The notes beneath the pieces were generated by a model that saw only the letters and a program-made list of their open reading frames with translations, ran no database searches and was not told the origin of the DNA. Positions 1 through 13,500 of a stretch of DNA of 13,500 nt are shown here, in pieces. Position 1 is the stretch's first letter; the number at the start of each line of letters is the position of its first letter. This stretch comes from Archangium sp. Lineage in GTDB: Bacteria; Myxococcota; Myxococcia; Myxococcales; Myxococcaceae. The stretch is taken from NCBI GenBank assembly GCA_031367385.1, contig JANLPS010000184.1, forward strand, positions 1-13,500. Reading direction: 5' to 3'. Both the position numbers and the translations under genes were made by a program.

Positions 1-11
1 TTTTTCAGGCC

Positions 12-602
12 CTACGGAGCGAACGCCATCGGAGGAATCGTCTCGAGCGCGCGCATGAACGCCGCCCCCGCCGACTTCACCTTCGGCTCGACGACTTCAA
101 TCCACCCCGTCAGCGTTCGAATCGCCGGCTCGGTGTACTCCGCCAGGCGCGGGTCGACGACCGTCACGCCTCCGCCGACCGAGAGACCCGGCACCACCGG
201 CACAGGCACCATCGCCGTGACGCCGATCGCGCCTTTGCTGCCAAGCAGCGCGCCGCCCACGCCGAACACCGAGACGTAAATCGTCTTGCCCGTGATCGGG
301 TCATTGCCGAAGCTCACGAAGGGCACCGACACGCCGCCGACGCCCGTAAACCCGTCTTTGGTGTGCGCCCCGCCCGCGTAGCCCACGACGGTGCCGACGC
401 CCGCCGATTCGTAGTCTGAAAGTTCGCGATGCCCCTTCGCGTCGACGGCCGAGAGCACTCCGCCGGCCGTGGCGTACACGCCCCCAACCCCGGGGATGCC
501 ATACGAGACGTTTGCCGTGGCCGCGACCTGCATCGGGTCGGTCAGCCGGTGCCACTTCTCAAGAAGTGACGTCGGAGCGGCGGGAGCAAGCGGCGGAGCC
601 AT
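12..602 (-). CDS. Hypothetical protein, 196 aa, Gly/Val-rich and probably beta-rich, with a Pro/Ala-rich N-terminus
   Basis: ATG at 602 is immediately preceded by an in-frame TGA; stop TAG at 12-14. Third codon positions are GC-biased and the composition is protein-like (GVGGVYATAGG, GFTGVGGVSVPF, GLSVGGGVTVVDP). No family recognised. Confidence 0.75.
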   Translation of the reverse strand: MAPPLAPAAPTSLLEKWHRLTDPMQVAATANVSYGIPGVGGVYATAGGVLSAVDAKGHRELSDYESAGVGTVVGYAGGAHTKDGFTGVGGVSVPFVSFGNDPITGKTIYVSVFGVGGALLGSKGAIGVTAMVPVPVVPGLSVGGGVTVVDPRLAEYTEPAIRTLTGWIEVVEPKVKSAGAAFMRALETIPPMAFAP

Positions 603-609
603 TCAAGGG

Positions 610-661
610 TATCGGCTCACGTCAGTGTGAGTTGTGTCGGCCTTCAGGGCTCTCACGTTGT
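610..661 (-). promoter_or_regulatory. Tandem putative alternative-sigma (sigma28-like) promoter motifs upstream of the 196-aa ORF
   Basis: Minus strand reads ACAACG-N15-CCGACA (661..635) and ACAACT-N14-CCGATA (635..610). The latter is followed by 7 nt and then the ATG at 602. The -10 parts (GCCGACAC, GCCGATAC) resemble the FliA/WhiG -10 consensus GCCGATAA. Confidence 0.4.
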
Positions 662-703
662 GAGAAACCCAGGGTGAAAGCGCCGGCCAACCGCCTGAAA
701 TGC

Positions 704-2002
704 CTAGCGAGTTCCCCAGCGCTCGTCGCGAACGGTGACCAGCGCCCACGGCAAAATCCACTGCAGGAGCACGAGGGAGAACGCTGCGTAGAGCACCCCG
801 TACATCCACCTGAAGCCGCGCTCGAAGCGCATGTAGTAGGCGGCCGAGAAGATCGCGCCGAGCAGCAAGGCGATCAGCGCGCGCCCGACTCCGCCCATGT
901 TGGTGTCGAAGAGCCGCGGCAGCTCCATCAGCGCCACCGCCACCAGTACGAAGCGCAAGTTCGAAACGAAGAACGTCACCACCGGCAGAATTCGGTTCTT
1001 CTCGCGGTACCGCGTGAACATGAACCTGGCGAACGAGAACCCTTCGACGATGTACGAGCGATCCCACCGCAAGAACATGCGCGAGAGCTGCTGGTACGAC
1101 GTGGGCACCAGCGTGTGCACCACCGCCGAGCGCTGGTACACCGTGTCGAAGCCCTGGCGCAGCACGATGTTGGTCAGCGCCTGATCTTCGCCGTGGTTCA
1201 CCGGCCGGCCCAAGAAGCGTTGGTTCTCCCACTCGTCGAGGTACGGCAGAATCGCGCCGCGCCGAAACGCCGAGAGCGCACCCGGGCAGCAGGCCACGGC
1301 CCGGTACACCGACTGCGCCGCGCGGCCGAAGTCGAACGCCAGGGCGAACTGCACCTCGAGCATGCGGCTGATCATCGTGTCGCGGTTGAGCACCGCCACC
1401 CGCCCCGCCACGCCGCCCACCTTCGGGTCGGCCAGAAACGGCGCCACCATCTCGTGAATCGTGGTCGGGCTGATCTCGCTGTCTGAATCGATGGTGATGA
1501 CGATGTCGCCGGTCGCGGCGCGAAACCCCGCCACCAACGCCGAGCGCTTGCCGCGGTTGCCGATGAAGCGAACCAACCGCACCAGGTCGGGGAACTCGCG
1601 ACGCAGGTGCTGCATGTGAAAGAACGTGTCATCGCGCGAGCCGTCATCGACGACGATCACCTCGAGCTTGTCTTTCGGGTACGCGCACGCCGCCACGGAG
1701 CGAATGCTCTGCCCGACCATCGGCCCCTCATTGAACGCGGGGATCACGACGGTCACCTTCGGCCACTGCGCACCTTCGGGAGCGACGAAGGTCTTGTACC
1801 GCATCCACAGCACGCTCAGCAGGCCGGTGTAGATGGCTTGAATCAGCGCGATCGCGCCAATCGGGTGCGTGACCATGCCGATCACCGCCGACGAGGGCGA
1901 GCCGTCTTCGGTCAGCTTGAGCCACAGCAAGCTCACCACCGCGCCAATCAGCGGAGACGCGCCGGCCACCTTGCCGCTGAACCTGCTCAGCTTGGTCGTC
2001 AT
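704..2002 (-). CDS. Membrane-embedded processive GT2 glycosyltransferase, hyaluronan synthase/NodC/chitin-synthase-like, 432 aa
   Basis: Motifs VVIPAFNE, VIVVDDGSRD, GNRGKRSAL, TIDSDS (DxD), CCPGALSAFR, GEDQALT (catalytic base motif), MFLRW (QxxRW position) and C-terminal WGTR. Two N-terminal and several C-terminal hydrophobic segments, as in class I HAS. Confidence 0.92.
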   Translation of the reverse strand: MTTKLSRFSGKVAGASPLIGAVVSLLWLKLTEDGSPSSAVIGMVTHPIGAIALIQAIYTGLLSVLWMRYKTFVAPEGAQWPKVTVVIPAFNEGPMVGQSIRSVAACAYPKDKLEVIVVDDGSRDDTFFHMQHLRREFPDLVRLVRFIGNRGKRSALVAGFRAATGDIVITIDSDSEISPTTIHEMVAPFLADPKVGGVAGRVAVLNRDTMISRMLEVQFALAFDFGRAAQSVYRAVACCPGALSAFRRGAILPYLDEWENQRFLGRPVNHGEDQALTNIVLRQGFDTVYQRSAVVHTLVPTSYQQLSRMFLRWDRSYIVEGFSFARFMFTRYREKNRILPVVTFFVSNLRFVLVAVALMELPRLFDTNMGGVGRALIALLLGAIFSAAYYMRFERGFRWMYGVLYAAFSLVLLQWILPWALVTVRDERWGTR

Positions 2003-5000
2003 GACTTGGCGCCTCCACCGAGAATGCGCCTCAGCACGCCATCGGGCAGCGAGTACGCCTCGGGGGCCGTCATGTCGCCGTGCGCGACGAGCAACTTGGT
2101 GTCGGCCAATAACCGCACCATCACGCTGGCCGCCTCCTGCGCGCGACGCTTGAGCTCTGCCGGTGCGAGATGCGCGTTCAACCCGGTGGCCGTGAAGCGC
2201 TCCATCACCTGAGCTTCGCCCAACTGGTGCAAGGTCGACACTGGCACCTTGTCGGCCTTCGCCAGCGCCCTCAGCAACACCCCCGCCGAGGTCTCGGCCT
2301 GGGCAATCTCAGACTCGACCCACACCCGCAGCGGAGACCCGCCCCGCTCTTCACGCGCGATCGCCTCAGTCGCTCCCTGAATGCCTACACGCACCGCGCC
2401 CAGCGCACCTTGCCGTGCACGGTCAGTGTCATAGAGCTCGAGCACCGAGGTGCCGAGGCGGCGAAGCAACAAGGGCACTCCGTGCGAGGCGCGAATCAAG
2501 GCCTGCAGCGCGTCGTCTTCGAAGCGAATGCCTTGGCGGGCGCCCAGCCCTCGCATCATCGCGAACGCGGCGTCGTCATCGAGCGCTGGCACGCAGATCG
2601 ACGAGAACGCCCCCATCAGTGACTGCCCACCCAGCGTGGTCAGGGGAGCCCACAGCAGCGGGTGTACCGCCGCGCAGAGCACCACGCCCACCGTGCTGCC
2701 TGAATGCGCTGAGGTCGGCTCGGCCAACGCGCTGCGCAGCCGGCCCACCAGCGTGGCCAGCACCTCGAGCGCCCGACCCAACTTCTCGGGCGAGGTCGAC
2801 AGCAGCTGCTCGACCTCGTCAATCACCAGCAGCATCGGCGGAGGCGCGGTGCCGCTCGACGTGCCGCACGCCGACGAGAGCGCGCGAACCCACCCCGCCA
2901 GGGTCGGCGCGTCGAGCACGCTCGGCACGATCGGCACCACGGCCGCGGGGTAGAGCAACGTCGTCGACTCGGCCAGGCGCATCACCAGCGTCTTCAGAAT
3001 GGCCTCGACCGCGACCGCTGGGGTTTCTCCGTAGAGCACCTCGTGCGAGAACCCGGCGAGGTCGACGTACGCCGAAGGCCCGGTGGTGCGCCGGGCCACC
3101 TCGAGCGCCAGCGACGACTTGCCGAAGCGCCGCAGCCCGGTGACGACCACCCAGTTGCCCGCGCGTGACTCGGTCAGCAGGCCCGCGACCAGGCGCTCCC
3201 GGTTCCAAAACTGGCTCGAGCTGCGAACTGGCCCGCGAACCTCGAAGGGGTTGCCGCGCAGGGTGGTGGCCTCGACCAGGTCGAGCAGATCTTCGTCGCG
3301 GGTCGCCCACGCCAACCGCGAGATGGCCAGAGGCAGCACCTGCACGGCCCGGGTGCCTCCGCGGGCGGCCCAGTCGAGGGTGGCTCGCACCGCCCCGAGA
3401 TCGGGCACGGCCGTATCGGCGTGCAGCAAGAACACCACGCGCGTGTCTTCTCGCAGCGCCACCGCCGCCGCGTGGTTCACGTCGGCTTCGCGCAGCGCCG
3501 TGGTGCCCGGAGCGAGCACCGCCACCGCGTTCGCGCCCCACCGCTCCCAGGCAGGCGTCGCCGGCAGCTCGAGCCGCAGCATGTCGTGCCGCGAGGGCAA
3601 CAAGAGCCGCCAGGTGCTGCGGGTGACGACCAGCTCGAGCCCCTCGAGGTGCTCGCGCACCGTTCTCATCGGGCCCGCGAACGTTCGCCGCGCGCGCCGC
3701 AAGCGCAGCAGCCACCCGAACACGACGACCGCCAGGCCGATCGCGATCAGCCCCGCGATGCTCAGCCGGCGGTGACGCACCCAGCTCTGCTGCAGCTCCG
3801 AGACGGCGTCGCAGTCATAGTGCGTACCCAGCTCGGTCTCGAGACAGGCCTGGCACCGGGCGATCGACAGCCCCGCCGCCTCGCAGGCCGAGGTCTGATT
3901 CAGCACATGCCCGAACCACGCGGGAAACGTCTCGCCGTGCCGCAGCTTGGCCAGCTCGGCCGGGCGCAGGCCACCCGCCTCGAGGCGCCATGGTGACGCG
4001 GTGATGGTTTCTCCCATGCCTTTGGCGATCGCGCCCAGGGCCACCAGCGATTGCTCGAAAGACGAGCCGGTACCGAAGCGCTCGTCGCACTGGGCCCGCA
4101 GCTTGGCCATCGCCGAGTCGCTCTCGCTGGCGTCGACGCGCACCATCTCAGCGGGCGTCGGCGGGTGGCTGAATTCGTCGGCGATGGTGATGGTGGCGCC
4201 GCTCCAGAGCAGCGAGGCGACCCGCTGGCACACCTCGAGCTCAGGCGCCGCCGTCGGCGAGGCCGGAGTGGTGCCCCAATTCGAAATCACCTTCAGCACC
4301 TCGGGTTGATCGATGCCGCATTCCTTGATGCGCAGGTGCTGCAGGGCCTTCGAAGCGCGGCCACAGCGGTCGATGGCGTCTCCGTCTTTGATGAAGTTGG
4401 CGAACGAATCGACCAGCGGCAACGTGCGGGCATCGAGCGCGGTGGGCGGAGGCAGGTGCGCGGCGGCCCACGCGCGGTACGACGCGGTGCTGTCGGCGTC
4501 AGCGAGGTAGCACAAAAACAATTTGCCCCGCGCCGCGGCCGAGAGCTCACCCAGCGGGCCCTGGCCCTTCTCCTTGCGACTGACGGGGAAGTCTTGCAGC
4601 CAGGCCCGCACGGTGTCTGCGTTCAGCGTGCCGCAGGGCGTGGCCCACATCTCTTCGATGCGACGGCGAATGATCAACGGCCCCGTCGTGTCGAGCAGCT
4701 CGACCAATTGCCGCGCGCGCCCGCATTCTTTGGGGCCGCTGCGCTCATCGCAGCCTGAGAACTCGAGGTACGAGAGGGTGAGCTTGAGCGCGGCCGACAA
4801 CGGCGGCCCGGCGGGGCCTGGCGGCTCTGGGTGCTCCGAATGCGCCTCGGCCATGAACGCCTCGGGCAGCGGGCCGCGGGAGTCGAAGAAGGCGTCGATG
4901 CCGGAGGTGCCCTGCGCCCGGTAGTGCTCCCAGGTATTGGGGGCGGTGAGCTTGAAGGCCTCGATCAGAATGCGCCGGTTCCACAACGGGGTGCCGCCGC

Positions 5001-5481
5001 GCAGCAGGTGCGCGAAGTGCCGCTCGGCCTCGGTCGAGCCGACCATTCGCGGCAAGGTGTCGCTGACGCCCGACGCGAAGTCATCGAGCTGGGCGAGGCC
5101 CTTCGAGACCGCCGACCACCCGTTGAGCACCGTCTGGAGCTGCTGCTGCACCTCGGGCGAGACGCAGCTGTTGGCGTTGCGCGCCGACCCTTTGAGCAGC
5201 GAGCTGGCGAAGGCCGCCGCCTCGTCGCATTGCTGTTCTTTGGCATTCACACACGCTTCGACTCGCGCCGAGGCGACCAGGCCCTTGTCTTTTGCATCAG
5301 TGAGCTCGGCTTCGCAGCGATCGCGGGTCGACGTCGCCGACCGGGCCGATTCTGCGCAGGTCGACAACATGCGCTGGCTGGTCGCTAAACGCTGCTCGAC
5401 CTCGACGCACGAAACGCCACCATCAGCAGCGGCGAAGGCGGCGCTCGACGCCAGAGAAATCACCAGAAAGACGAACTTCAT
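1999..5481 (-). CDS. Single-pass membrane protein with a Cys-rich ectodomain and a cytoplasmic STAND/AAA-type P-loop ATPase, 1160 aa
   Basis: Start placed at ATG 5481 (MKFVFLVISLASSAAFA, signal-peptide-like) rather than 5865, which overlaps the divergent gene. TM helix LSIAGLIAIGLAVVVFGWLL (~3765-3706) is followed by RLRRARR. NPFEVRGPV..FWNRE motif (~3252), Walker A VVVTGLRRFGKSS (~3138-3115), Walker B LLVIDE (~2832-2815) and the GxP motif SHGVPLLLRRLG. The stop overlaps the GT2 start (ATGA, 1999-2002). Confidence 0.88.
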   Translation of the reverse strand: MKFVFLVISLASSAAFAAADGGVSCVEVEQRLATSQRMLSTCAESARSATSTRDRCEAELTDAKDKGLVASARVEACVNAKEQQCDEAAAFASSLLKGSARNANSCVSPEVQQQLQTVLNGWSAVSKGLAQLDDFASGVSDTLPRMVGSTEAERHFAHLLRGGTPLWNRRILIEAFKLTAPNTWEHYRAQGTSGIDAFFDSRGPLPEAFMAEAHSEHPEPPGPAGPPLSAALKLTLSYLEFSGCDERSGPKECGRARQLVELLDTTGPLIIRRRIEEMWATPCGTLNADTVRAWLQDFPVSRKEKGQGPLGELSAAARGKLFLCYLADADSTASYRAWAAAHLPPPTALDARTLPLVDSFANFIKDGDAIDRCGRASKALQHLRIKECGIDQPEVLKVISNWGTTPASPTAAPELEVCQRVASLLWSGATITIADEFSHPPTPAEMVRVDASESDSAMAKLRAQCDERFGTGSSFEQSLVALGAIAKGMGETITASPWRLEAGGLRPAELAKLRHGETFPAWFGHVLNQTSACEAAGLSIARCQACLETELGTHYDCDAVSELQQSWVRHRRLSIAGLIAIGLAVVVFGWLLRLRRARRTFAGPMRTVREHLEGLELVVTRSTWRLLLPSRHDMLRLELPATPAWERWGANAVAVLAPGTTALREADVNHAAAVALREDTRVVFLLHADTAVPDLGAVRATLDWAARGGTRAVQVLPLAISRLAWATRDEDLLDLVEATTLRGNPFEVRGPVRSSSQFWNRERLVAGLLTESRAGNWVVVTGLRRFGKSSLALEVARRTTGPSAYVDLAGFSHEVLYGETPAVAVEAILKTLVMRLAESTTLLYPAAVVPIVPSVLDAPTLAGWVRALSSACGTSSGTAPPPMLLVIDEVEQLLSTSPEKLGRALEVLATLVGRLRSALAEPTSAHSGSTVGVVLCAAVHPLLWAPLTTLGGQSLMGAFSSICVPALDDDAAFAMMRGLGARQGIRFEDDALQALIRASHGVPLLLRRLGTSVLELYDTDRARQGALGAVRVGIQGATEAIAREERGGSPLRVWVESEIAQAETSAGVLLRALAKADKVPVSTLHQLGEAQVMERFTATGLNAHLAPAELKRRAQEAASVMVRLLADTKLLVAHGDMTAPEAYSLPDGVLRRILGGGAKS

Positions 5482-5562
5482 TGTCGGGGCGTGGTCATAC
5501 CAGGTGTCACCCTGCGAGGGAGCGGGCTTTCGTACGCGCTCAGAAGTGATAGGCCCCTGCCG

Positions 5563-7725
5563 GTGCGACGTGGTCTGGTCTCGGGGCTCTGGTGTGTGGC
5601 GTTGCTCGCGGTCTCGACGCTGCCCTCGCGGCTGGCGTCGGTGATGCACGGGCGCGCGGCACTGTGGGAAAAAGCCGTTCGCATCTTCGCGGGCGCGATT
5701 CTCGACCTCTCGGCGGTGATCGCGGTGCTGGTGCCGATCATCTGGCTTTTGGCGGTGCTGCCGGGGGTGTTGTTCAAGCCCCGCGCGAAGTGGCAACAGC
5801 TGGCGGCGCCTCTGTTGAGCCTGCCGATCTGCTTCGCGGTGTACCTGTTGGCGATCACCGCGCAAGAGGTCAAATCAGAGCGCGGCGCGTTTCCCACGAT
5901 GTTTGATTTGGCCGAGGGCGGAGGCAACGCCTCGTTCGTCGGCGGCGCGCTCGGGTTCATTCGGCTCGACCGCATCTGGGTGCCGCTGATCGTCTTTCTG
6001 GTGCTCACGGCGACGGTGCTGTTCTTCGCGGTTCGATGGGCTCGCCGAAGCGCTCAGCCTGAGCCGAAAGCCGCGTGGGTGTTCGGCCTGAGCGGTGGTC
6101 TGGGCCTGGGCATCGGAGCGCTCTTCGTGTTGGCGCAGCTCCAAGCAGCCGTCGCCAACCGCACCAGCCCCGCCGCGCTGGGAGACCCGTTGACCGGCAT
6201 CGTCGAGAGCTCGTTCGACATGCTCCAGCACCGGAGCGCGGCGACGCCTCGAGAGTTGACCTTGGAGGTCGAGCTGCCCGCGGGCTCTTCGGCGCTCGGC
6301 GCGACGCGAATCGGGTGGCCAAGAGCGAACGCGATGACGCCGATCGCTGGGGCGACCTGCTTTCACCCCCGGGCCCGCCCACTCGGAGCCGACCCGGGCG
6401 CCTCAGGCCACGCACTGATCACGGCCCTCGAAGCGGTCTCGAAGGCGCTCTTCACCAATGGCGACGGGCGAATCGCTATGTTCGAGCTCTCGCTCGAGAG
6501 CTTTCGGGCCGATGACGTGCACGCCTTGAACCCGCTGGCGCCGGTCGAGATCGACCCGTTCACCACCGGCCTCTACGACGCTGCCCACCGCGGCGGCGGC
6601 GAGGGTGTGCTGGCCAGCTCGAAGATGTACCAGGCGGGTGTTCGCACCGCGCAAGGCCTCGGCGCGCTGACCTGCGGCATCGGCACCCTGCCCTACAACC
6701 TCAGCATCATTCGCGACTTGCAGCCCTTCGCCCTGCGCTGCGCCGGAGACGTGCTGCACGACGCGGGCTTCGGCGCCTCGTTCTATTACGGCTCAGACGC
6801 CACCTTCGATCAGATGGATCAATTTCTGAAATCGCACGGAGTCACGAAGCTCGTCTCGCAGGTCGAGCTGCCCAAGAACCTGCCCAAAGGCGCGTGGGAT
6901 GGCGTGACAGACCTGGCGGTGTTTCACGAAGCCGTGCAGGCGATGGCGCAGTCGGTGGAGACCGGGCCGCAGTTCTCGTTCGTGATGTCGCTGTCGAACC
7001 ATTCGCCGTACACGCCGCCCGAAGACCTGCCAGCCGCAGTCACTGAGCGGGTCGACCGCGCGTTGAAGACCGCCTCGCACCGGGCCGAGTCAGACGATCG
7101 CCGCCGGTTGTTGACCCACTCGTACACCGACGCCGCGGTCGAGAAGTTCTTCGCCGAGCTTTCGACCACGAACCTGGCGGAGCGCTCGATCGTGCTGCTC
7201 TCGGCCGACCACTCGACGGGTGAGAACTACATCTGGGGCATGGGCGACCCCGAGACCGATGACGCGAAGGCGCGAATTCCGTTCGCGATTGTGATCCCTC
7301 CGGCGTTCATGGCGAGGGTCAGCGACCGTGTGGCGCTGGTGAAGGCGCTCGAGGAGGCGCAGCGGCAGCTCGAAGCGGCTCCGATTTCGCAGAATGACGT
7401 GCCGGCGATGATCTTGGCCCTGGTGTCGGCGAACCCCGCGATCACCGCGATGCCTGCTTCGGCGAAGTGGCACACGTTGGGCGGCCAGCGCACCAGCGCG
7501 ACCTTCGCCCCAGGGGGTGACGAGCGCTCGTTCATCATCGGCATCAACGGGGTCAGTGAGTTTTTCACCCTCGACCGCGAAGGCACGCGCGTGGGCGGGT
7601 ACGAAGACTCGGTGTTCTTGAAGACGCGGGCCGATCGCTACCGGGTCACGCCGCGGCTGATACCCGTGGCGGCGACCTTGGCTGAGACCCTTCGGTGGAG
7701 CTGTCAGCCTTCTTCAGCGCGGTAG
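5563..7725 (+). CDS. LTA-synthase/MdoB-like (alkaline phosphatase/sulfatase superfamily) membrane enzyme, probable phospho-substituent transferase
   Basis: About 5 N-terminal hydrophobic helices followed by a soluble domain with LSLESF (metal-binding Glu), GVRTAQG (Thr nucleophile position), SLSNHSPY, YTDAAVEKFF and LSADH. The start is uncertain: the ORF is open from GTG 5491, and GTG 5563 is preferred because it leaves room for divergent promoters and follows TGATAGGCC by 7 nt. Confidence 0.85.
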   Translation: MRRGLVSGLWCVALLAVSTLPSRLASVMHGRAALWEKAVRIFAGAILDLSAVIAVLVPIIWLLAVLPGVLFKPRAKWQQLAAPLLSLPICFAVYLLAITAQEVKSERGAFPTMFDLAEGGGNASFVGGALGFIRLDRIWVPLIVFLVLTATVLFFAVRWARRSAQPEPKAAWVFGLSGGLGLGIGALFVLAQLQAAVANRTSPAALGDPLTGIVESSFDMLQHRSAATPRELTLEVELPAGSSALGATRIGWPRANAMTPIAGATCFHPRARPLGADPGASGHALITALEAVSKALFTNGDGRIAMFELSLESFRADDVHALNPLAPVEIDPFTTGLYDAAHRGGGEGVLASSKMYQAGVRTAQGLGALTCGIGTLPYNLSIIRDLQPFALRCAGDVLHDAGFGASFYYGSDATFDQMDQFLKSHGVTKLVSQVELPKNLPKGAWDGVTDLAVFHEAVQAMAQSVETGPQFSFVMSLSNHSPYTPPEDLPAAVTERVDRALKTASHRAESDDRRRLLTHSYTDAAVEKFFAELSTTNLAERSIVLLSADHSTGENYIWGMGDPETDDAKARIPFAIVIPPAFMARVSDRVALVKALEEAQRQLEAAPISQNDVPAMILALVSANPAITAMPASAKWHTLGGQRTSATFAPGGDERSFIIGINGVSEFFTLDREGTRVGGYEDSVFLKTRADRYRVTPRLIPVAATLAETLRWSCQPSSAR

Positions 7726-8099
7726 CGGGCCATCACCTCGGCGTGGCTGACCGCGGCCTTCGAGGTACCGGCCATTTGGTAACGAACGGGCGTCAGGCGA
7801 CCAGGCGTCACCGTGTCGCTGACGATCTGCAAGAGCACCGGGTAGGTAGAGCCGTTGTAGTCGGCGTACGACGGCACCCGGCCGAGCTCTTCGAGTGACG
7901 CGCGGTCGAGCACGCGCACGATGAACTGGGAGTCGGCCTTCGCCGTCGCGCCCAGCTCACTGAGCATCTTGAAGGCCGTGCCGGTCGCGCCGAAAGACAC
8001 GCCGAAGGTCGACACTTTCTGGCTGCGCAAAGAGCCGATGAGATCGCCGATGGGGTCTCGGCGAAAGCTTCGCGCGGCTGCAGTCAGGGCTGGAATCAT
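7704..8099 (-). CDS. Hypothetical protein, 131 aa
   Basis: ATG start, GC3-biased codons and globular composition. It fills the gap between the LtaS-like and PIG-L genes, with a 22-bp convergent overlap with the LtaS-like gene end. No family recognised. Confidence 0.65.
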   Translation of the reverse strand: MIPALTAAARSFRRDPIGDLIGSLRSQKVSTFGVSFGATGTAFKMLSELGATAKADSQFIVRVLDRASLEELGRVPSYADYNGSTYPVLLQIVSDTVTPGRLTPVRYQMAGTSKAAVSHAEVMARYRAEEG

Positions 8100-8106
8100 G
8101 CGGAGT

Positions 8107-8133
8107 TGTCGGATGACCGGGCCGAAAAGGTGC
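8107..8133 (-). promoter_or_regulatory. Putative alternative-sigma promoter motif upstream of the 131-aa ORF
   Basis: Minus strand reads GCACCT-N15-CCGACA-N7-ATG(8099). Architecture and 7-nt spacing to the ATG match the motif upstream of the ORF starting at 602. Confidence 0.38.
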
Positions 8134-8171
8134 CTTGGCGCGTGAAAAAGCGAACGGTCTCGGTCACTTCG

Positions 8172-9431
8172 CTAGTCGACCCAGGTCGGCGGAGCCTTCA
8201 CTTCGACGCGCACCTCGGCGGGCGTCATCACCGCCTGCCCGATGAAGCCCTCGTCGCCCCAGATCGACCACTCGGCGACGTCACCATCGTCGGGCCGGGG
8301 GTCGACGCGGAGCCTCAAGGTCGTCGACTCGGTGTACGGGCGCGGCCACCGCCCGATTCGACGCCGGTTCCACCCTTCGACGCGGTTGAGGGTCACCCGG
8401 TCGTGCGACAAGAACAGCTCGAACTCGTCGAGCCCTTTGTCGCGCGAGGCCGTCAACCCAAGCAGGGGAAAATTTTTGAACTCCAGCTCGAGCTCATCGG
8501 CCGGTTGCTGCGAGCCTGGAGCGGGTGCCCGCAGCCACCGGCCCGAGTCGGTACGAACCAGCTCCTCTGGGTAAAACGTCTCTTCGCGCCGGGCGAACGA
8601 GGCCAGCCAATCGGTGCGCGGCGTCAGCCCGGTCTGGGAGTCGTACTGAGAAATCACCTCGAGCTTGAAGCTCGGCTCGACGGGCAAGCGCTCGCGCGGC
8701 AGGTATTTTTCCATCGGGGGCGGCAACGGGGGCATCGCCTCGCCGGGCCGAAAGGGCACCTCGCAGTCGCCTGGCCAGCAACGGCCCGCGTGAATGATGC
8801 CGCGGTGCACGCGCGGCGGAGCGATGTCGACGCGGTCGAGCGCTCGTCGAAAGTAGGCGTAGGTCGCGGCGTGATCGGGGTGATCGTCGATGCCGTGGGT
8901 AATGTAGACGTCGCGCGGCCGCAGCCGGGTCAGCAACGCGGCCAGGTCTCCGGTCAGCGCGTCGGCGGTGTACTCACCGGGGCGGCCGGTTCGGGCCGTG
9001 TGCTCGTCTGCGCCGTTCGCGCCGCGAGTCGCATAGGTCCACGCGGTCTTCACGCAGCGGCCGTCGGTGGCCCGGCGCTCGAGCAGCGGCAACGAGGTGG
9101 GCCCCATGATGCCCAGGTCGCCGTCGGGGTAGCCCAGAAAGTGCACATCGCCTTCGGGCACGCCGACTAGGCGCATCGCATCGATGGTCTCTGCCTCGCG
9201 AATGTAGCCGTTTCGCTCGCACGAGAGATCGCCGTTGGTCATCAAGATCACCGCGACGTGTTGGCCGCGGGCGACGGCGCGCCGCATCACACCGGCGGCG
9301 AGCAGGGCTTCGTCATCGGGGTGTGGGCCGATCACCAGCACGTCGACGTCGTACTTCGCGGTGCCGGGCGCCGATCGCTGCACCGCGCAGGCGCAGAGAA
9401 GCAGGCACAGCATTGAGACGCGGTGAATCAC
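8172..9431 (-). CDS. PIG-L/LmbE family de-N-acetylase, probable lipoprotein, with a C-terminal beta-rich extension (~419 aa)
   Basis: Motifs VLVIGPHPDDEAL, MTNGD, REAETIDAM, FLGYPDG and DDHPDH, matching the Zn-binding HxDD and HxDH motifs. The N-terminus MIHRVSMLCLLLCA-C is lipobox-like. Start is GTG 9431 (alternatives ATG 9413 or ATG 9479); the ORF-track extension to 9956 overlaps the divergent gene. Confidence 0.9.
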   Translation of the reverse strand: MIHRVSMLCLLLCACAVQRSAPGTAKYDVDVLVIGPHPDDEALLAAGVMRRAVARGQHVAVILMTNGDLSCERNGYIREAETIDAMRLVGVPEGDVHFLGYPDGDLGIMGPTSLPLLERRATDGRCVKTAWTYATRGANGADEHTARTGRPGEYTADALTGDLAALLTRLRPRDVYITHGIDDHPDHAATYAYFRRALDRVDIAPPRVHRGIIHAGRCWPGDCEVPFRPGEAMPPLPPPMEKYLPRERLPVEPSFKLEVISQYDSQTGLTPRTDWLASFARREETFYPEELVRTDSGRWLRAPAPGSQQPADELELEFKNFPLLGLTASRDKGLDEFELFLSHDRVTLNRVEGWNRRRIGRWPRPYTESTTLRLRVDPRPDDGDVAEWSIWGDEGFIGQAVMTPAEVRVEVKAPPTWVD

Positions 9432-9590
9432 GTATGCGGGGCGTAGACCATTCTCTGCGTGCTCGCGCAACGAGGTCATCAGGTCACCACCCCACCGCAG
9501 GCCCAGCGAGCGAATGAACGCGACTGTTTCTCGGCCGTGACGCACGGACGGCCTTCGAACTGGGGCGAGTGAGATTTCAGCGGCTTGCCT

Positions 9591-9607
9591 CTGGCACACG
9601 AGGTGAA
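9591..9607 (+). promoter_or_regulatory. Possible sigma54-type -24/-12 element with a non-canonical -12
   Basis: CTGGCAC-ACGAG-GTGAA: perfect -24 (TGGCAC), but GTGA replaces TTGC at -12. It ends ~14 nt before ATG 9621. Confidence 0.25.
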
Positions 9608-9620
9608 GGGCCGCGCCGCC

Positions 9621-10721
9621 ATGTTCACTCCAATCAATCGCAGCGTCGGCAGGCGGGTCGCAGTGAATGGGCTTGAAGCGAACGGGGCGCCGCCTCCTCC
9701 ACCGCCCGAAGACGTGACGTTTCGCCAGATGACGGCCCTCTGCCCCGAGCTCGAGTCGGCGATTCCTCCCGGCTGCAGCACGCCGGCATCGAAGGCCTTG
9801 TATGTGATGAGCCATCACCTGCTCGCAAAGCAGCTCAAGGGGGCGCCGATGACGCTGGCCCTCGGCAAGGGGGCCTCGATTTCGCTGCTCGCGACTGGAG
9901 CGCTCGAGCTCAGGCCAGGCCCCGGCGGCGCGGTGCTTCGATTGAATAACCGGCACGACGATTTGGGGCGCTTGCTCGACGGCGCGGCGAAGCAGTCGCC
10001 CGAGCAGCCGAGCCCGTACGTGGCGGCATCGAAGATTGGGCTCGAGGCGACCTTGAGCACGGCCGTCGCGAAGTACTACGCCAACCCTTCGTTCGATGGC
10101 GGAGCTGAGGCCAAGAACACCCGCGGGCAGAACACCTTCGCGTACGCGACCATTCAGCAGGTGCTGGTGTCAGATGACCCAACCCAGCGCGGGCTCGAGT
10201 GCCTCGGGTCGGCCGATTTTCACCTCTACAAATCGATGGGCCTCATACCCCCTGAGCTGAGCCGCGAAGAGGTCGAGCGCCGGTACACGTCGATTCACGG
10301 CGCCTCGACGCACCCCACGCCTCGGCTGGGGCCCGAGTTCGACCTGGCGCTCCGAGGCATACCCTCTGCCAAGGGGTTTGGGCCTCGCGACGCGGCGGAG
10401 TTCGCCAATGCTCTGCGCGCAGATGATTGGGCCAAGCTGACCTTGGCGTCACATGGTACGTATGCGTATCAATCGTTGCCGAGCATCGGTGCGGTGGCCG
10501 CGCACCTGGGTCGCGGCGGCTCGGCGGTGCACGCCGCCTGGGCCGACGGTGGGCATCACTTCGTCTTGAGCGGCGCGAGCGCGCAGAGTGGGCACATGAC
10601 CGTGAATCAAGACGACTCGCTGCGAAGCGAGCCGCCGCGGCGACCCGCCAACGGAGAATGGCCGAATCGGGTGGCGTACGACCCGAGCGAGCACACCCGG
10701 TTTTGGGCGATCGTGCGGTGA
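9621..10721 (+). CDS. Hypothetical protein, 366 aa, with a possible papain-like (C39-type) Cys-His-Asp domain in the C-terminal half
   Basis: ATG 9621, GC3-biased codons and a poly-Pro N-terminal region. Motifs QRGLECLGSA, GGHHFVLSG and VNQDDS appear in papain-fold order. The CDS is well supported; the function is inferred. Confidence 0.75.
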   Translation: MFTPINRSVGRRVAVNGLEANGAPPPPPPEDVTFRQMTALCPELESAIPPGCSTPASKALYVMSHHLLAKQLKGAPMTLALGKGASISLLATGALELRPGPGGAVLRLNNRHDDLGRLLDGAAKQSPEQPSPYVAASKIGLEATLSTAVAKYYANPSFDGGAEAKNTRGQNTFAYATIQQVLVSDDPTQRGLECLGSADFHLYKSMGLIPPELSREEVERRYTSIHGASTHPTPRLGPEFDLALRGIPSAKGFGPRDAAEFANALRADDWAKLTLASHGTYAYQSLPSIGAVAAHLGRGGSAVHAAWADGGHHFVLSGASAQSGHMTVNQDDSLRSEPPRRPANGEWPNRVAYDPSEHTRFWAIVR

Positions 10722-10743
10722 AGGTGCGCTAAGTCGCTTGCGC

Positions 10744-11433
10744 ATGGCAGCGTTGATTTTTTCACCGGGGCCCCACCCCTCCTCAGTTCGAGACGCTCGC
10801 GGGCAGGTGCACCCGGTGCCCGCAGGCTGGCAGTGCCTGCCGCCGGGAGACCCAGGGTTGACCCGGCGCGTGAAGGCCTTGGGCGAGACCTGGGCAGTCA
10901 TCGAGAAGCTGGGCCGAAAGACGTTTTCTCGAGGGGTTTGGGCGCCTGCGGAGGCGATCGCAGCCGCGCGGCAGAGGCTCGAGGCCGAGCGGCAGACGCC
11001 GGCTTACGCGAAGAAACGCGCCGCCGACGTGCAGCGCCGTGGAGTCGCGCAGCAGCGCTACGTGGCCGACTTCGAGGCCGAGGTGCTGGCCTTCTTGGCG
11101 TTCTCTACTGAATACGCCGCACTCGAGAAAGCCGTGGCCAAGGCCGTGACGGCGCACGCGACGCCCGTCGGCAGCGGCACGGTCGCGCGCACCAAGCGAA
11201 TCGGCATCGACGAACGGGCCGAGGCGGCGGTGATCGCCTGGCTGCGACATCAGACCACGGCGTACGACTCGATGACGGTGGCGCGGGTCAAAGGCGCGCG
11301 CAGAGAAGTACGGCGCCGGCTCGCCGAGATATCGCGAAAGCTCCTGTCGAGGCATCGCGATGGAGTGCACGAAGTCGCGTCGTGCCCGCTCTGCCGATTC
11401 GCCGATGGAGCCATCAAGAGCCGCTCGGCCTGA
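10744..11433 (+). CDS. DUF2293 domain-containing protein, 229 aa
   Basis: Characteristic segments LPPGDPGLTRRVK, GRKTFSRGVWAP, HATPVGSGTVART and AAVIAWLRHQTTAYD...GARREVRR. Confidence 0.85.
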   Translation: MAALIFSPGPHPSSVRDARGQVHPVPAGWQCLPPGDPGLTRRVKALGETWAVIEKLGRKTFSRGVWAPAEAIAAARQRLEAERQTPAYAKKRAADVQRRGVAQQRYVADFEAEVLAFLAFSTEYAALEKAVAKAVTAHATPVGSGTVARTKRIGIDERAEAAVIAWLRHQTTAYDSMTVARVKGARREVRRRLAEISRKLLSRHRDGVHEVASCPLCRFADGAIKSRSA

Positions 11434-11488
11434 AGCGCTCCAAGAATGACCGTGGGGCACGAACGGAGAGGTAACTTGATGCCGCCGC

Positions 11489-12022
11489 GTGTATGCCCCT
11501 GGCGTGACATCAAGCCCCTCCGGCGGCGAGCCCAAGGTCCTCGACACCGCCGAGTCGATCATCATCGATGGCGCCAACGGCGTGACCCCGGCCCCTCGCC
11601 ACGCCTTCCCCGACGCGGGAGTCTCGTTGGGGCTCGCGGTGCTTGTCGTGGTGGCGACCCTGGCGTTGCGTCGTCGGCCGTTCACCACATGGGCGCTGCC
11701 TGTGCTGCTGCTCCTCGCCGCCGTGCCTGGCCTGGTGCACGTGGTGGCGCTGAGGGCCGACGCGCCGCTCGAGCGCCCGGTGCTTGCCGCCAAAGTCGAT
11801 CAAACCCTCGACGCCATGCAGCACGCCGTGCCCTGGCCGCGCCCGGTGCATGTCGCTCGCGAAGAAGACGATGTGCTGTACCCCTTCGTGCGCTACGCGG
11901 TGCCAAGCCGCTCCGATTCGGCCCCTGGGGTCATCGAGCTCGAGGTCGCGGGTGAGCACCTCCCCGCCAAATGCCGCGTCGAGGCGCCATCGGGTCGCGT
12001 CTTCTGTGGTGACGCCCCGTGA
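11489..12022 (+). CDS. Hypothetical membrane protein, ~177 aa, with two TM helices and a small C-terminal extracytoplasmic domain
   Basis: Hydrophobic segments GVSLGLAVLVVVATLAL and WALPVLLLLAAVPGLVHVVAL flank RRRP. The stop overlaps the next start (GTGA, 12019-12022). Start uncertain (GTG 11489 or 11504). Confidence 0.7.
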   Translation: MYAPGVTSSPSGGEPKVLDTAESIIIDGANGVTPAPRHAFPDAGVSLGLAVLVVVATLALRRRPFTTWALPVLLLLAAVPGLVHVVALRADAPLERPVLAAKVDQTLDAMQHAVPWPRPVHVAREEDDVLYPFVRYAVPSRSDSAPGVIELEVAGEHLPAKCRVEAPSGRVFCGDAP

Positions 12023-13221
12023 TCAGCCTGCTCGGTCTGGCCCTCATTCACCTGGCCGGCGCCGCGCTGCGAGCGGCCCTCACCAGCCGCGCGTTCACCC
12101 AAGTCGTCCGCTCCCCCGCCTCGGGCTGGTACGCGGTGGTGCTGCTCTACGGCCTCTCGCTCGGAGCGCCGGGCCTGGTCTGCATCGCCGCACTTCTCGC
12201 CTGGCTGCGTTTCAGCCGCCCCCGCCCCGCCCCCAGCGCCCCGGTCTTGCCCCTCTCGTTTTGGCTCACCCTGGGCACGCTGGCGGCCTTGATGCTTGCG
12301 CGCCCCTGGGTCCCCACCCAGTGGGACGAGTTCGTCTGGCTCGCCAAAGCGCGAATCGAATCAACGGGCTTCGCGACCGCGGCCACCGCATCGCTCGACC
12401 CGGCCCAAGACCTCGTGCCCTCGGGCTACCCACCCCTGTGGCCCTCGCTCGTGGCCTGGCTGTCACTGGGCGTCGACTCCGTTAGCGCACACGTCGGCGC
12501 GGCGAGCCTGTTGCTCGTGCTCTGCGTCGCGACCGCCCTCGAGACCTGGTGGTCGCGGCTTCGCTCCGGCCACCCACTGTTGCTGATCGCGGTGCTCGCG
12601 ACGCCCTTCGTCTGGGTGCATGCCCGCTCGACCTACCTCGACCTCCCGGTCGGTTTGCTGGCCGTGGCGCTGTTGGGCCTCGCCCTGGCCGAAGACCTGG
12701 TCACCGCCACGGTGCTCGCGGTGGTGCTCTGCGCCCTCAAAGACGAGGGCATGGTGCATGTCTTCGCGGCCACCGCCGCGATCTGGGTCACGGCACCGGT
12801 TCGTTCATTCAAGCTCCTCTCTCTGCTGCTCGTCGGCGGGCTGACGGCAGTGCTCTGGCGCGCGTTGCTCCACGTTCACGGCATCGCCAATGTCGATCAC
12901 GCCCCGACGACGCCCCTGTGGCACTGGCTGCCGCAGGCGCTGACCCTCACGGCCTTTCACGCGAGCGATCTCTGGTCATGGGGCGTCTTCTGGAGCATCG
13001 CGCTCGCGCTCTCGCTGCTCCCCACCGAAGACCGAACCCTGCGCGCTCTGCGCTGGGCGCTGGCGGTGAACCTGGTGCTCTCGACCGGGGCGTTGCTCGC
13101 TGGCCCCGAGCAGGTGCGGGTCTTCGCCCAGAACGGCACCCTGCTCAATCGCCTGCTGATGCAGTGGTGGCCGGTGGCGGCGGTGCTCGTGCTCGAGAGC
13201 CGGCGCCAGGCACCGAAATGA
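12019..13221 (+). CDS. Polytopic membrane protein, probable GT-C-fold (lipid-linked-donor) glycosyltransferase, 400 aa
   Basis: About 11-12 hydrophobic segments. Loop motifs PTQWDEFVWLAKAR (acidic pair after a TM helix), GYPPLWP, YLDLP and LKDEG are typical of uncharacterised ArnT/PMT-like GT-C proteins. Confidence 0.75.
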   Translation: MISLLGLALIHLAGAALRAALTSRAFTQVVRSPASGWYAVVLLYGLSLGAPGLVCIAALLAWLRFSRPRPAPSAPVLPLSFWLTLGTLAALMLARPWVPTQWDEFVWLAKARIESTGFATAATASLDPAQDLVPSGYPPLWPSLVAWLSLGVDSVSAHVGAASLLLVLCVATALETWWSRLRSGHPLLLIAVLATPFVWVHARSTYLDLPVGLLAVALLGLALAEDLVTATVLAVVLCALKDEGMVHVFAATAAIWVTAPVRSFKLLSLLLVGGLTAVLWRALLHVHGIANVDHAPTTPLWHWLPQALTLTAFHASDLWSWGVFWSIALALSLLPTEDRTLRALRWALAVNLVLSTGALLAGPEQVRVFAQNGTLLNRLLMQWWPVAAVLVLESRRQAPK

Positions 13222-13408
13222 CCCAGCTGACGGGCCGACGGCGCGATCCACACCCGGTCGTCATTCGCTTCGACGATGAACAGCGCGACTCTCGTTGGTT
13301 CCATCGTTCAGAGAGGTACCACGCGGGTCTGACATGTCCTCCTGAGGGGTGAGCGACCGGCAGGGCAATCGCATCATCCGTTTTCAGTCATCTCGGTAGT
13401 TTGGCGGC

Positions 13409-13500
13409 ATGCAAGCGAGAGAGACGTGCCTTCGGGTCGCTGTGAATTCATCGAGCGTGAAGTCGGTGGGCTACGACGCGGCGCTTTCGACGTTGGACAT
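13409..13500 (+). CDS. KTSC domain-containing protein (5' part, truncated by the window end)
   Basis: Not in the ORF track. ATG 13409 translates to MQARETCLRVAVNSSSVKSVGYDAALSTLD..., matching the KTSC N-terminal pattern R-x-x-V-x-SS-x-[IV]-x-S-[IV]-GYD-x4-TL. Confidence 0.85.
   Translation, partial: MQARETCLRVAVNSSSVKSVGYDAALSTLD

Follow-up and report, generated by a model that had tools for sequence, protein, structure and literature searches.

The stretch of DNA analysed here, hereafter called the window, comprises 13,500 nucleotides of an Archangium sp. genome (GCA_031367385.1, contig JANLPS010000184.1, positions 1 to 13,500). This genome is 98% complete and measures 7.97 Mb, and the window forms the start of its contig C14. 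Its minus strand carries two overlapping genes, each present as one copy in the genome, namely a gene for a membrane-spanning ATPase of the STAND class and a gene for a processive family 2 glycosyltransferase (GT2) resembling NodC and hyaluronan synthases (HAS). The STAND and GT2 genes form the fixed core of a set of myxobacterial genes whose likely task, together with exchangeable tailoring enzymes, is to make a modified glycan for the surface. The pair shows the following features:

1999..5481, minus strand: STAND ATPase, single-pass membrane protein of 1160 amino acids (whole open reading frame)
5425..5481, minus strand: N-terminal hydrophobic stretch (residues 1-19), likely a signal peptide by hydropathy, N-termini being poorly conserved up to DGG-VSC
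5194..5406, minus strand: predicted helix of 71 residues (26-96) with a heptad pattern (model and heptad count) and cysteines C25, C42, C56, C77, and C85 at core positions
3766..5193, minus strand: predicted all-helical Cys-rich ectodomain (97-572), no family match, with eight cysteines in 95 of 95 homologues
3709..3765, minus strand: transmembrane helix (573-591) predicted by hydropathy, with an Arg-rich stretch after it
3256..3648, minus strand: predicted restriction-endonuclease-fold domain (612-742; VIA Z 8.0-9.6 in the top eight rows), no conserved catalytic motif
2587..3252, minus strand: STAND-class P-loop NTPase (744-965; motifs; 2qen Z 17.6, 2fna Z 15.2), Walker A and B intact
2002..2586, minus strand: GxP helical domain and winged-helix-like end (966-1160; sequence and model), no repeat domain after it
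1999..2016, minus strand: ATGA stop/start overlap with GGAGG upstream (sequence)
704..2002, minus strand: NodC/HAS-like processive GT2 of 432 amino acids, with motifs DDGS, DSDS, GEDQ, MxxRW, and a terminal WGTR

Read from its N-terminus, the large protein consists of a signal peptide, a Cys-bearing coiled coil, a helical ectodomain, a transmembrane helix, a restriction-endonuclease-fold domain, a STAND NTPase, and a winged helix. Its hydropathy displays two hydrophobic stretches (residues 1-19 and 573-591), the second being followed by RLRRARR, and 18 of its 21 cysteines occur within residues 20-570. Open reading frame, hydropathy, and motifs agree with the initial annotation, which had described a 1160-residue protein with a signal peptide, a Cys-rich ectodomain, a transmembrane segment, and a P-loop ATPase; the regions that it named were all recovered, but the restriction-endonuclease-fold domain between the transmembrane helix and the ATPase had been overlooked. 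An AlphaFold model was obtained for the STAND protein (41 rows, pLDDT 79.7, pTM 0.42), and a second one, covering residues 22-745 (94 rows, pLDDT 88.7), displayed the 71-residue helix, an all-helical ectodomain, a long membrane-crossing helix, and an alpha/beta domain. The N-terminal helix is likely a disulfide-linked coiled coil, as suggested by its predicted heptad pattern with cysteines at core positions. Mean pairwise identity amounted to 32% for the coil, 40% for the ectodomain, 55% for the nuclease fold, and 64% for the NTPase. For the ectodomain, no match was found in Pfam and no usable one in the ESM Atlas, the PDB sequences gave only a tropomyosin-like coiled-coil match (E 0.2), and fold searches returned nothing at E ≤ 0.001 in Foldseek and only rows with Z < 7 in VIA, this domain being barely probed inside the 724-residue model.

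The ATPase part starts with NPFEVRGPV (from residue 744) and contains the Walker A motif GLRRFGKSS (from 782), which is identical in 91 of 95 homologues, the Walker B residues DE (888-889), and GVP (at 1001). As modelled, residues 755-1160 best matched the archaeal ATPases 2qen (Z 17.6, root-mean-square deviation (rmsd) 4.1, 303 residues aligned) and 2fna (Z 15.2), followed by two plant NLR resistosomes (Z 15.0 and 14.6) and then by Orc/Cdc6 proteins (14.7 and lower). In Pfam, AAA_16 reached 22.7 of the 32.6 bits and nSTAND1 19.2 of the 27.1 bits demanded by the curated cut-offs; one homologue, P0122, scored 32.7 bits for AAA_16. Because both families stay under their cut-offs, the STAND label is based on motifs, including GxP, and on the predicted fold of residues 755-1160, and by these the large protein is a member of the STAND class; the earlier identification as such holds in motifs and fold, not in Pfam. 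The protein shares the NTPase/helical/winged-helix module and a GxRRxGK Walker A with the archaeal-type STAND ATPases PAB2304 (2qen) and SSO1545 (2fna), but differs from these in its signal peptide, 550-residue ectodomain, membrane helix, N-terminal nuclease-fold domain, tie to a synthase, and Pfam scores under cut-off. Sequence, Pfam, and model gave no C-terminal sensor repeats of the TPR, WD40, or LRR type, the protein stopping after the winged helix. Among the STAND groups, the MNS clade and nSTAND1 are named in PMC8195603. Homologues of the STAND protein numbered 273 at E ≤ 0.001 among the 8000 candidates scored, the displayed organism names were myxobacterial, and the nearest named records to the locus were Myxococcaceae. 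In three genomes, the STAND gene is split in two on one contig (G001:C191:1853-5289, G322:C105:7453-10880, and G496:C11:1143405-1146876), by an assembly error or as a broken gene.

Membrane helix and ATPase are separated by a predicted domain that resembles restriction endonucleases. Indeed, the top eight of 48,161 chains compared by VIA (Z 8.0-9.6, rmsd 2.6-3.9, 98-136 residues aligned) comprised seven entries named as endonucleases or restriction enzymes, plus a protein whose function is unknown. Foldseek gave none at E ≤ 0.001 for this domain, the best match being RPB5 (E 0.022), and a Pfam scan of eight members gave no match. Residue 633 is Asp in 60 of 94 members and the next strand is without D/E-x-K. 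Since the catalytic motif was located by strand order, without residue-level superposition, the domain is called likely inactive. With the catalytic motif lost from a nuclease fold in effector position, its output is likely protein contact and not DNA cutting. Avs and its kin carry a nuclease fold N-terminal to the STAND core. The present protein shares this arrangement with such NLR-like anti-phage STANDs and the likeness extends to plant resistosomes, but it differs from the Avs type in lacking a C-terminal repeat sensor and a conserved catalytic motif, and in possessing a membrane anchor with an outside domain.

The second gene of the pair indeed encodes a HAS/NodC-like GT2, as first annotated. 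Its closest solved relatives were the HAS of Xenopus (E 1.4e-28) and of a Chlorella virus (E 5.4e-26), and its best NCBIfam model was NodC (TIGR04242; 196 bits against a cut-off of 550), with PgaC lower at 121 bits. The D, DxD, catalytic D, and (Q)xxRW motifs of processive GT2s are present, together with membrane helices. Among 76 aligned GT2s, K152, D273, R312-W313, and the terminal WGTR were invariant or nearly so, and the sequence stops at WGTR without further helices. The enzyme shares with class I HAS and NodC the DxD, the catalytic Asp of G(E/D)D, the RW of QxxRW, the WGT gating loop, and the priming-loop Cys, but carries MxxRW for QxxRW (Met in 75 of 76 members), GEDQ for GDDR, and Gln for R287, and its 196 bits stay below the NodC cut-off. 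Two arginines of hyaluronan synthase are R287 and R343 in Xenopus HAS1 (PMC11750622). With the HAS1 numbering transferred by sequence alignment, the R287 position (Q218) is Gln in 73 of 76 members, and all 76 of 76 read GEDQ where HAS1 has GDDR, with Gln in place of R343. Hence, GDDR, QxxRW, and the channel arginines R287 and R296 expected of a class I HAS are not all present. The likeness to NodC, together with the de-N-acetylase gene described below, suggests that the product contains N-acetylglucosamine (GlcNAc). Paralogous GT2s carry GEDR in 14 of 16 cases, so GEDQ marks the STAND-linked clade. The first hydrophobic helix (residues 14-27; window positions 1922-1963, minus strand) has G14, P17, and G20 invariant in 76 of 76 STAND-linked members, most paralogue alignments beginning after this helix, which is a candidate site of contact with a helix of a partner protein.

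The linkage of both genes was followed through 125 STAND loci from two collection scans (80 of 81 from genomes and 45 from metagenomes, some being near-duplicates). Counted at an identity of at least 50%, a GT2 orthologue was found at 93 of the 125 loci; it was absent at 14 despite at least 2 kb of downstream DNA, and 18 loci were truncated. In addition, 355 genomes of the window's phylum that are at least 90% complete were scanned. The STAND gene occurs in 37 of these, and the same 37 hold a GT2 of at least 60% identity, whereas the matches in 11 further genomes top out at 48%. Similarly, of 251 genomes from the class to which Labilithrix belongs, 7 contain the STAND gene and the same 7 hold a GT2 of at least 55% identity, 16 others reaching 50% at most. 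The pairing proposed in the initial annotation, for which scoring of homologues had been set as the check, was thus borne out (93 of 125 loci; 37 of 37 and 7 of 7 STAND genomes). In 7 of the 37 genomes, the two genes lie apart, either by 162 kb (G316) or on different contigs, and when GT2-less loci were checked in their own genomes, four out of four had a GT2 elsewhere. A GT2 tree separated 59 STAND-linked rows from 16 paralogues (SH-aLRT 99, from a quick search with long-branch warnings). Trees of 74 STAND and GT2 pairs shared 37 of 70 splits, and one of 27 well-supported GT2 splits conflicted. No distant STAND protein was found by the family profile in 16 paralogue regions. A predicted complex of GT2 with STAND residues 520-1060 scored 0.25 against a mark of 0.32; it was run without controls folded and counts neither way.

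Plus-strand positions 1999-2002 read tcat, corresponding to ATGA on the minus strand, so that the overlap of STAND stop and GT2 start was annotated correctly; the GGAGG upstream of the GT2 gene ends 9 bases ahead of its ATG. Translational coupling as a general trait did not survive the comparison. Of the 93 loci, 45 have both genes in the same direction, 29 of these with the ATGA overlap. At the other 48, which belong almost entirely to the more divergent members, the GT2 gene lies on the opposite strand, coupling being lineage-specific. The annotated two-gene module was rejected too. Genes for GT-C-like membrane proteins, an LTA-synthase-like protein, and a lipoprotein de-N-acetylase recur around the pair; all three further partners are present in the window, and two of them share the genome distribution of the STAND gene in the window's family.

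The reading of the large protein as receptor-like gained support from its distant relatives. In 15 of the 57 relatives that exceed 400 amino acids and whose Walker A could be read, a membrane helix is predicted ahead of the same ATPase. Propellers of the BNR/Vps10, Reg_prop, or WD40 type take the position of the ectodomain in several of the membrane relatives scanned, and TPR and CHAT domains are present in one. The pre-ATPase domain of the distant relatives was matched to that of the present family by hhalign at 92%, the three ectodomain controls remaining at or below 4.5%. The cytoplasmic module of nuclease fold and STAND core may therefore be viewed as a unit accepting different front ends, and swapped front ends on one cytoplasmic module form the pattern expected of receptors. 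Members of this wide set, with a predicted transmembrane helix, a propeller or TPR front, and nuclease fold and STAND behind, are P0204, P0205, P0210, P0215, P0223, P0233, P0235, P0245, P0253, P0255, and P0264. To judge by its sequences, the set may constitute a class of single-pass receptor ATPases that has yet to be studied.

To describe the partner genes, neighbouring open reading frames were clustered in 126 stretches (the 125 loci and the window), and recurring neighbours were judged by eye on 80 residues from the 45 largest clusters. A membrane protein of 606 amino acids recurred in 43 stretches, an LTA-synthase-like protein in 35, a PIG-L protein in 34, a membrane protein of 400 amino acids in 28, and a protein of 170 amino acids in 16. 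Four of these five, all but the first, lie in the window:

5491..7725, plus strand: LTA-synthase/phosphoglycerol-transferase-like membrane protein, divergent from the STAND gene, the real start probably lying some codons further in
8172..9479, minus strand: PIG-L family de-N-acetylase with a lipoprotein-like N-terminus (Pfam PIG-L 1.9e-22)
11489..12022, plus strand: small membrane protein without a family assignment, its gene overlapping the following one (cluster found in 16 of 126 stretches)
12019..13221, plus strand: polytopic membrane protein of 400 amino acids with a GT-C-like lead (PMT_2; ESM Atlas)

The LTA-synthase-like protein matched the Pfam family Sulfatase (3e-21) and, under cut-off, LtaS (1.7e-8). 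Its gene and that of the 400-residue protein occur in the same 35 of 171 genomes of the window's family as the STAND gene. The 606-residue family was found in 10 of the 11 STAND genomes outside this family; it was not found in the Archangium genome itself, and its close copies are confined to 12 of the 35 genomes within the family, while distant ones occur in many STAND-less genomes. The 400-residue protein scored 0.98 in the ESM Atlas to clusters with 11-30% PMT_2 members. Both membrane families possess invariant WDE and W-D motifs, weak GT87/DUF2079 matches appeared in 2 and 3 of 25, PDB sequences gave no match, and a comparison of the two family profiles gave a probability of 2%, so that no homology between them was shown. 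A lipobox pattern was found in 24 of 31 PIG-L members; the window copy is not flagged by the pattern, but its hydrophobic stretch ends in Cys. The PIG-L proteins with a lipobox pattern represent a putative extracytoplasmic polymer-modifying enzyme. PIG-L is a different family from PgaB/IcaB. Neighbours of the nodA or nodB type were not recognised among the 45 largest clusters, the deacetylase there being of the PIG-L family. Among the same clusters, neither mobile or defence genes nor an outer-membrane or TPR exporter were recognised, an unlinked exporter gene not having been searched for.

A paralogous GEDR-type GT2 lies directly upstream of a 606-residue GT-C-like gene in five STAND-less genomes (L157:7661-10997, L158:7587-10923; G576, G597, and G600), and this pair is possibly the ancestral, ATPase-free form of the pathway. 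A database protein of 927 residues, P0152, joins the 606-residue family to the N-terminal third of the STAND protein; its linker resembles a wrong frame, and the fusion is probably a frameshift artefact.

Bacterial polysaccharide synthases are known mainly as enzymes controlled by cyclic di-GMP (c-di-GMP), and STAND ATPases mainly as cytoplasmic immune and transcriptional switches. The layout of synthase-dependent exopolysaccharide systems is well known, as is phosphoethanolamine transfer of the BcsG type as a decoration. The present gene set resembles such systems (PgaABCD/IcaADBC, Bcs, Alg, and Pel) in its processive membrane GT2, inner-membrane partner, extracytoplasmic lipoprotein de-N-acetylase, and decorating transferases. 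It differs from these in that the partner is a STAND ATPase, that the synthase is nearer to NodC/HAS than to PgaC (196 versus 121 bits), and that an outer-membrane exporter was not recognised among the recurring neighbours. Pfam gave no PilZ or GGDEF match in the STAND protein or the GT2, although degenerate c-di-GMP-binding sites may escape such a search. A description of the STAND-GT2 pairing was not found in full-text literature searches, subscription papers and supplements falling outside their scope (source-data tables of PMC8195603 and PMC7159879 could list the architecture). The nearest published link between STAND proteins and glycosyltransferases that was found consists of fused GT4 effectors in conflict systems: according to PMC8195603, STAND-GT4 fusions and nSTAND2 two-gene systems are predicted conflict systems, the GT4 domains being read as intracellular effectors. 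These fusions likewise tie a STAND NTPase to a glycosyltransferase, but the present system has a separate processive membrane GT2, a conserved single-copy membrane STAND, and extracytoplasmic tailoring enzymes.

Taken with the directly observed gene layout, motifs, genome co-occurrence, and recurring partners, the predicted folds and topology point to a surface-sensing switch of the receptor type that controls the synthesis of a modified GlcNAc surface glycan, a reading that we consider to have an even chance of being correct. Since, in the genomes searched, it occurs only together with this one synthase clade and in every carrier of that clade, the STAND protein likely switches on the making of a chitin-like glycan for the cell surface and does not serve to kill infected cells. 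In a first step, the disulfide-braced ectodomain and coiled coil would hold or receive a signal in the periplasm. Secondly, the signal would pass through the single helix, upon which the STAND core would swap ADP for ATP and oligomerise, such exchange and oligomerisation being general properties of STAND switches. Thirdly, the disarmed nuclease fold may serve as the contact surface activating the GT2, the sole constant genetic partner of the STAND protein. Fourthly, the GT2 would polymerise GlcNAc into a chitin-like chain or oligomer and pass the product through its own membrane part. Lastly, on the outside, the PIG-L lipoprotein would deacetylate the chain, while its decoration or anchoring would fall to the LTA-synthase-like and GT-C-like proteins. 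The STAND ATPase would thereby occupy the place of the c-di-GMP-binding partners in cellulose, alginate, Pel, and poly-N-acetylglucosamine systems. A bolder version is advanced only tentatively, namely that of an NLR-type surface receptor with its nuclease disarmed and its outside domain braced by disulfides, which directly activates a chitin-like synthase without c-di-GMP and represents the first tractable member of a wider and so far unstudied class of single-pass receptor STANDs with interchangeable ectodomains.

If true, a membrane-spanning STAND protein tied without exception to one synthase clade would mean that synthesis can be controlled by a new route that starts outside the cell, or else that a new ATP-driven export scaffold exists, and control of glycan synthesis would be a new job for a switch of the STAND class. 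The pairing suggests that myxobacteria make a surface glycan not yet described, which may resemble chitin or chitosan. In addition, the broad receptor-shaped STAND set (15 of 57 distant relatives), so far without an output, would gain a named one. Cultured carriers exist, namely Labilithrix luteola DSM 27648 and Pendulispora species, which makes the system testable.

Several findings weigh against a receptor-type switch that controls GlcNAc glycan synthesis. The 37 STAND genomes represent 9 of 137 genera, one genus contributing 17 of its 17 genomes, so that kinship is involved; the congruence of STAND and GT2 trees is expected from vertical descent alone; and the identity thresholds for the GT2 (60% and 55%) were chosen from gaps that became visible once the search was done. 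There are 27 STAND-less genomes with paralogous GT2s, in five of them adjoining the same GT-C-like family, indicating that this enzyme type has no general need of the ATPase. Outside the window's family, the 400-residue gene was found in 4 and the LTA-synthase-like gene in 2 of 11 STAND genomes, neither GT-C-like family was found in the STAND genome G437, and the GT-C assignment of both membrane families is a sequence-derived lead only. Furthermore, the equivalent of HAS1 R296 is retained in 76 of 76 GT2s. The K177 and R341 residues of the Chlorella-virus HAS, which hold the glucuronate carboxylate according to PMC12987647, have equivalents in K152 and R312, which speaks against a plain exclusion of hyaluronan; the GT2 product may be an acidic or mixed polymer. 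The ectodomain resembled no established sensor; its residues ~120-270 gave weak TPR-like matches such as BamD (Z 5.9-6.8), which lie within helical-bundle noise and would suit a scaffold equally well.

Such a scaffold is the foremost alternative, though a rather unlikely one. The STAND protein would then be a constitutive co-polymerase or export scaffold, assembled by ATP into a ring, in which the helical periplasmic part and a 10-nm coiled coil guide the glycan across the periplasm or set its length, as Wzc or BcsB with a TPR scaffold would. Wzc combines a periplasmic coiled coil, a membrane helix, and a cytoplasmic P-loop, which the topology of the STAND protein recalls. A scaffold would explain the co-occurrence of both genes equally, and would agree with the heptads with core cysteines, the weak TPR-like matches, and the conserved ectodomain (40% mean identity). 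The export role would also be vacant, the 45 largest neighbour clusters having yielded nothing recognisable by eye as an outer-membrane or TPR exporter. However, the fold is STAND-like and matches STAND/AAA+ proteins, not a bacterial tyrosine (BY) kinase, the C-terminus is without the tyrosine cluster of Wzc, and there is no Wzc-type Pfam match. Moreover, the distant relatives replace the ectodomain by propellers while keeping the cytoplasmic module, and the paralogous synthases manage without a STAND protein.

It is improbable that the pair is an inducible defence system, in which phage, predators, or envelope damage would be sensed and answered with a glycan coat, or with killing through the nuclease-fold domain. 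The nuclease fold in effector position, the NLR resistosomes among the top fold matches, the patchy spread over genera, and the predicted conflict function of STAND-GT4 fusions (PMC8195603) would fit such a role, but the catalytic motif is not conserved, the gene is single-copy and present throughout one genus, and the ectodomain keeps its length and cysteines without diversification. The PADLOC defence profiles gave no match, the best values being E 0.012 for the window's STAND protein and 0.0056 for one homologue, over short stretches only, and mobile or defence genes were not recognised among the recurring neighbours. These PADLOC values and the conserved single-copy ectodomain count against the anti-phage shield that had been suggested earlier.

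A reversed direction is highly improbable. In that case, the GT2 would make a short, possibly lipid-linked glycan, which the GT-C-like protein would transfer to a surface target, the STAND protein either being this target or sensing the product so as to control something else. Short oligomers are the products of NodC-type enzymes, no further helices follow the terminal WGTR of the GT2, and the pair is found together with GT-C-like genes throughout the family (35 of 35 genomes) and in 10 of 11 genomes outside it. However, no other output gene co-occurs among the recurring neighbours, and the GT2 still has the gating loop, as well as channel-side motifs, seen in synthases that export polymers. 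Mere co-inheritance of genes with separate jobs, by descent or transfer, is scarcely credible: kinship inflates the counts and 14 of 107 informative loci are without a nearby GT2, but the 355 and 251 genomes contain no exception, the linkage persists through opposite orientations and two classes, and both genes were retained after separation.

Some further features of the locus concern neither gene of the pair directly. A promoter scan of the window yielded no sigma-70-like sites, and terminators occurred at shuffle level. Four open reading frames of the window (12-602 and 7704-8099 on the minus strand, 9585-10721 and 10738-11433 on the plus strand) have no counterpart in the 125 loci; three are of no family and one encodes a DUF2293 protein, and three of the four break up the usual gene order of the cluster. 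One or two genes that we take, by their sequence, to be flagellin-like lie beside the cluster in eight loci (L025, L026, L027, L049, L053, L062, L066, and L107); a flagellin link was rejected, no flagellin-like gene having been found in the Archangium genome. Similarly, a second small stand-alone ATPase follows the STAND gene at L081:13533-14597 (AAA_16, E 1.6e-6), L086:13465-14562, and L132:8435-9376, and was not found in the Archangium genome. A second copy of the LTA-synthase-like gene occurs elsewhere in several genomes of one genus (G218, G220, G223, G224, G053, G230, G006, G225, and G226). Finally, bases 1-141 of the window match, in reverse, the start of another contig of its genome (G000:C341:1-141), indicating that the genome carries on there.

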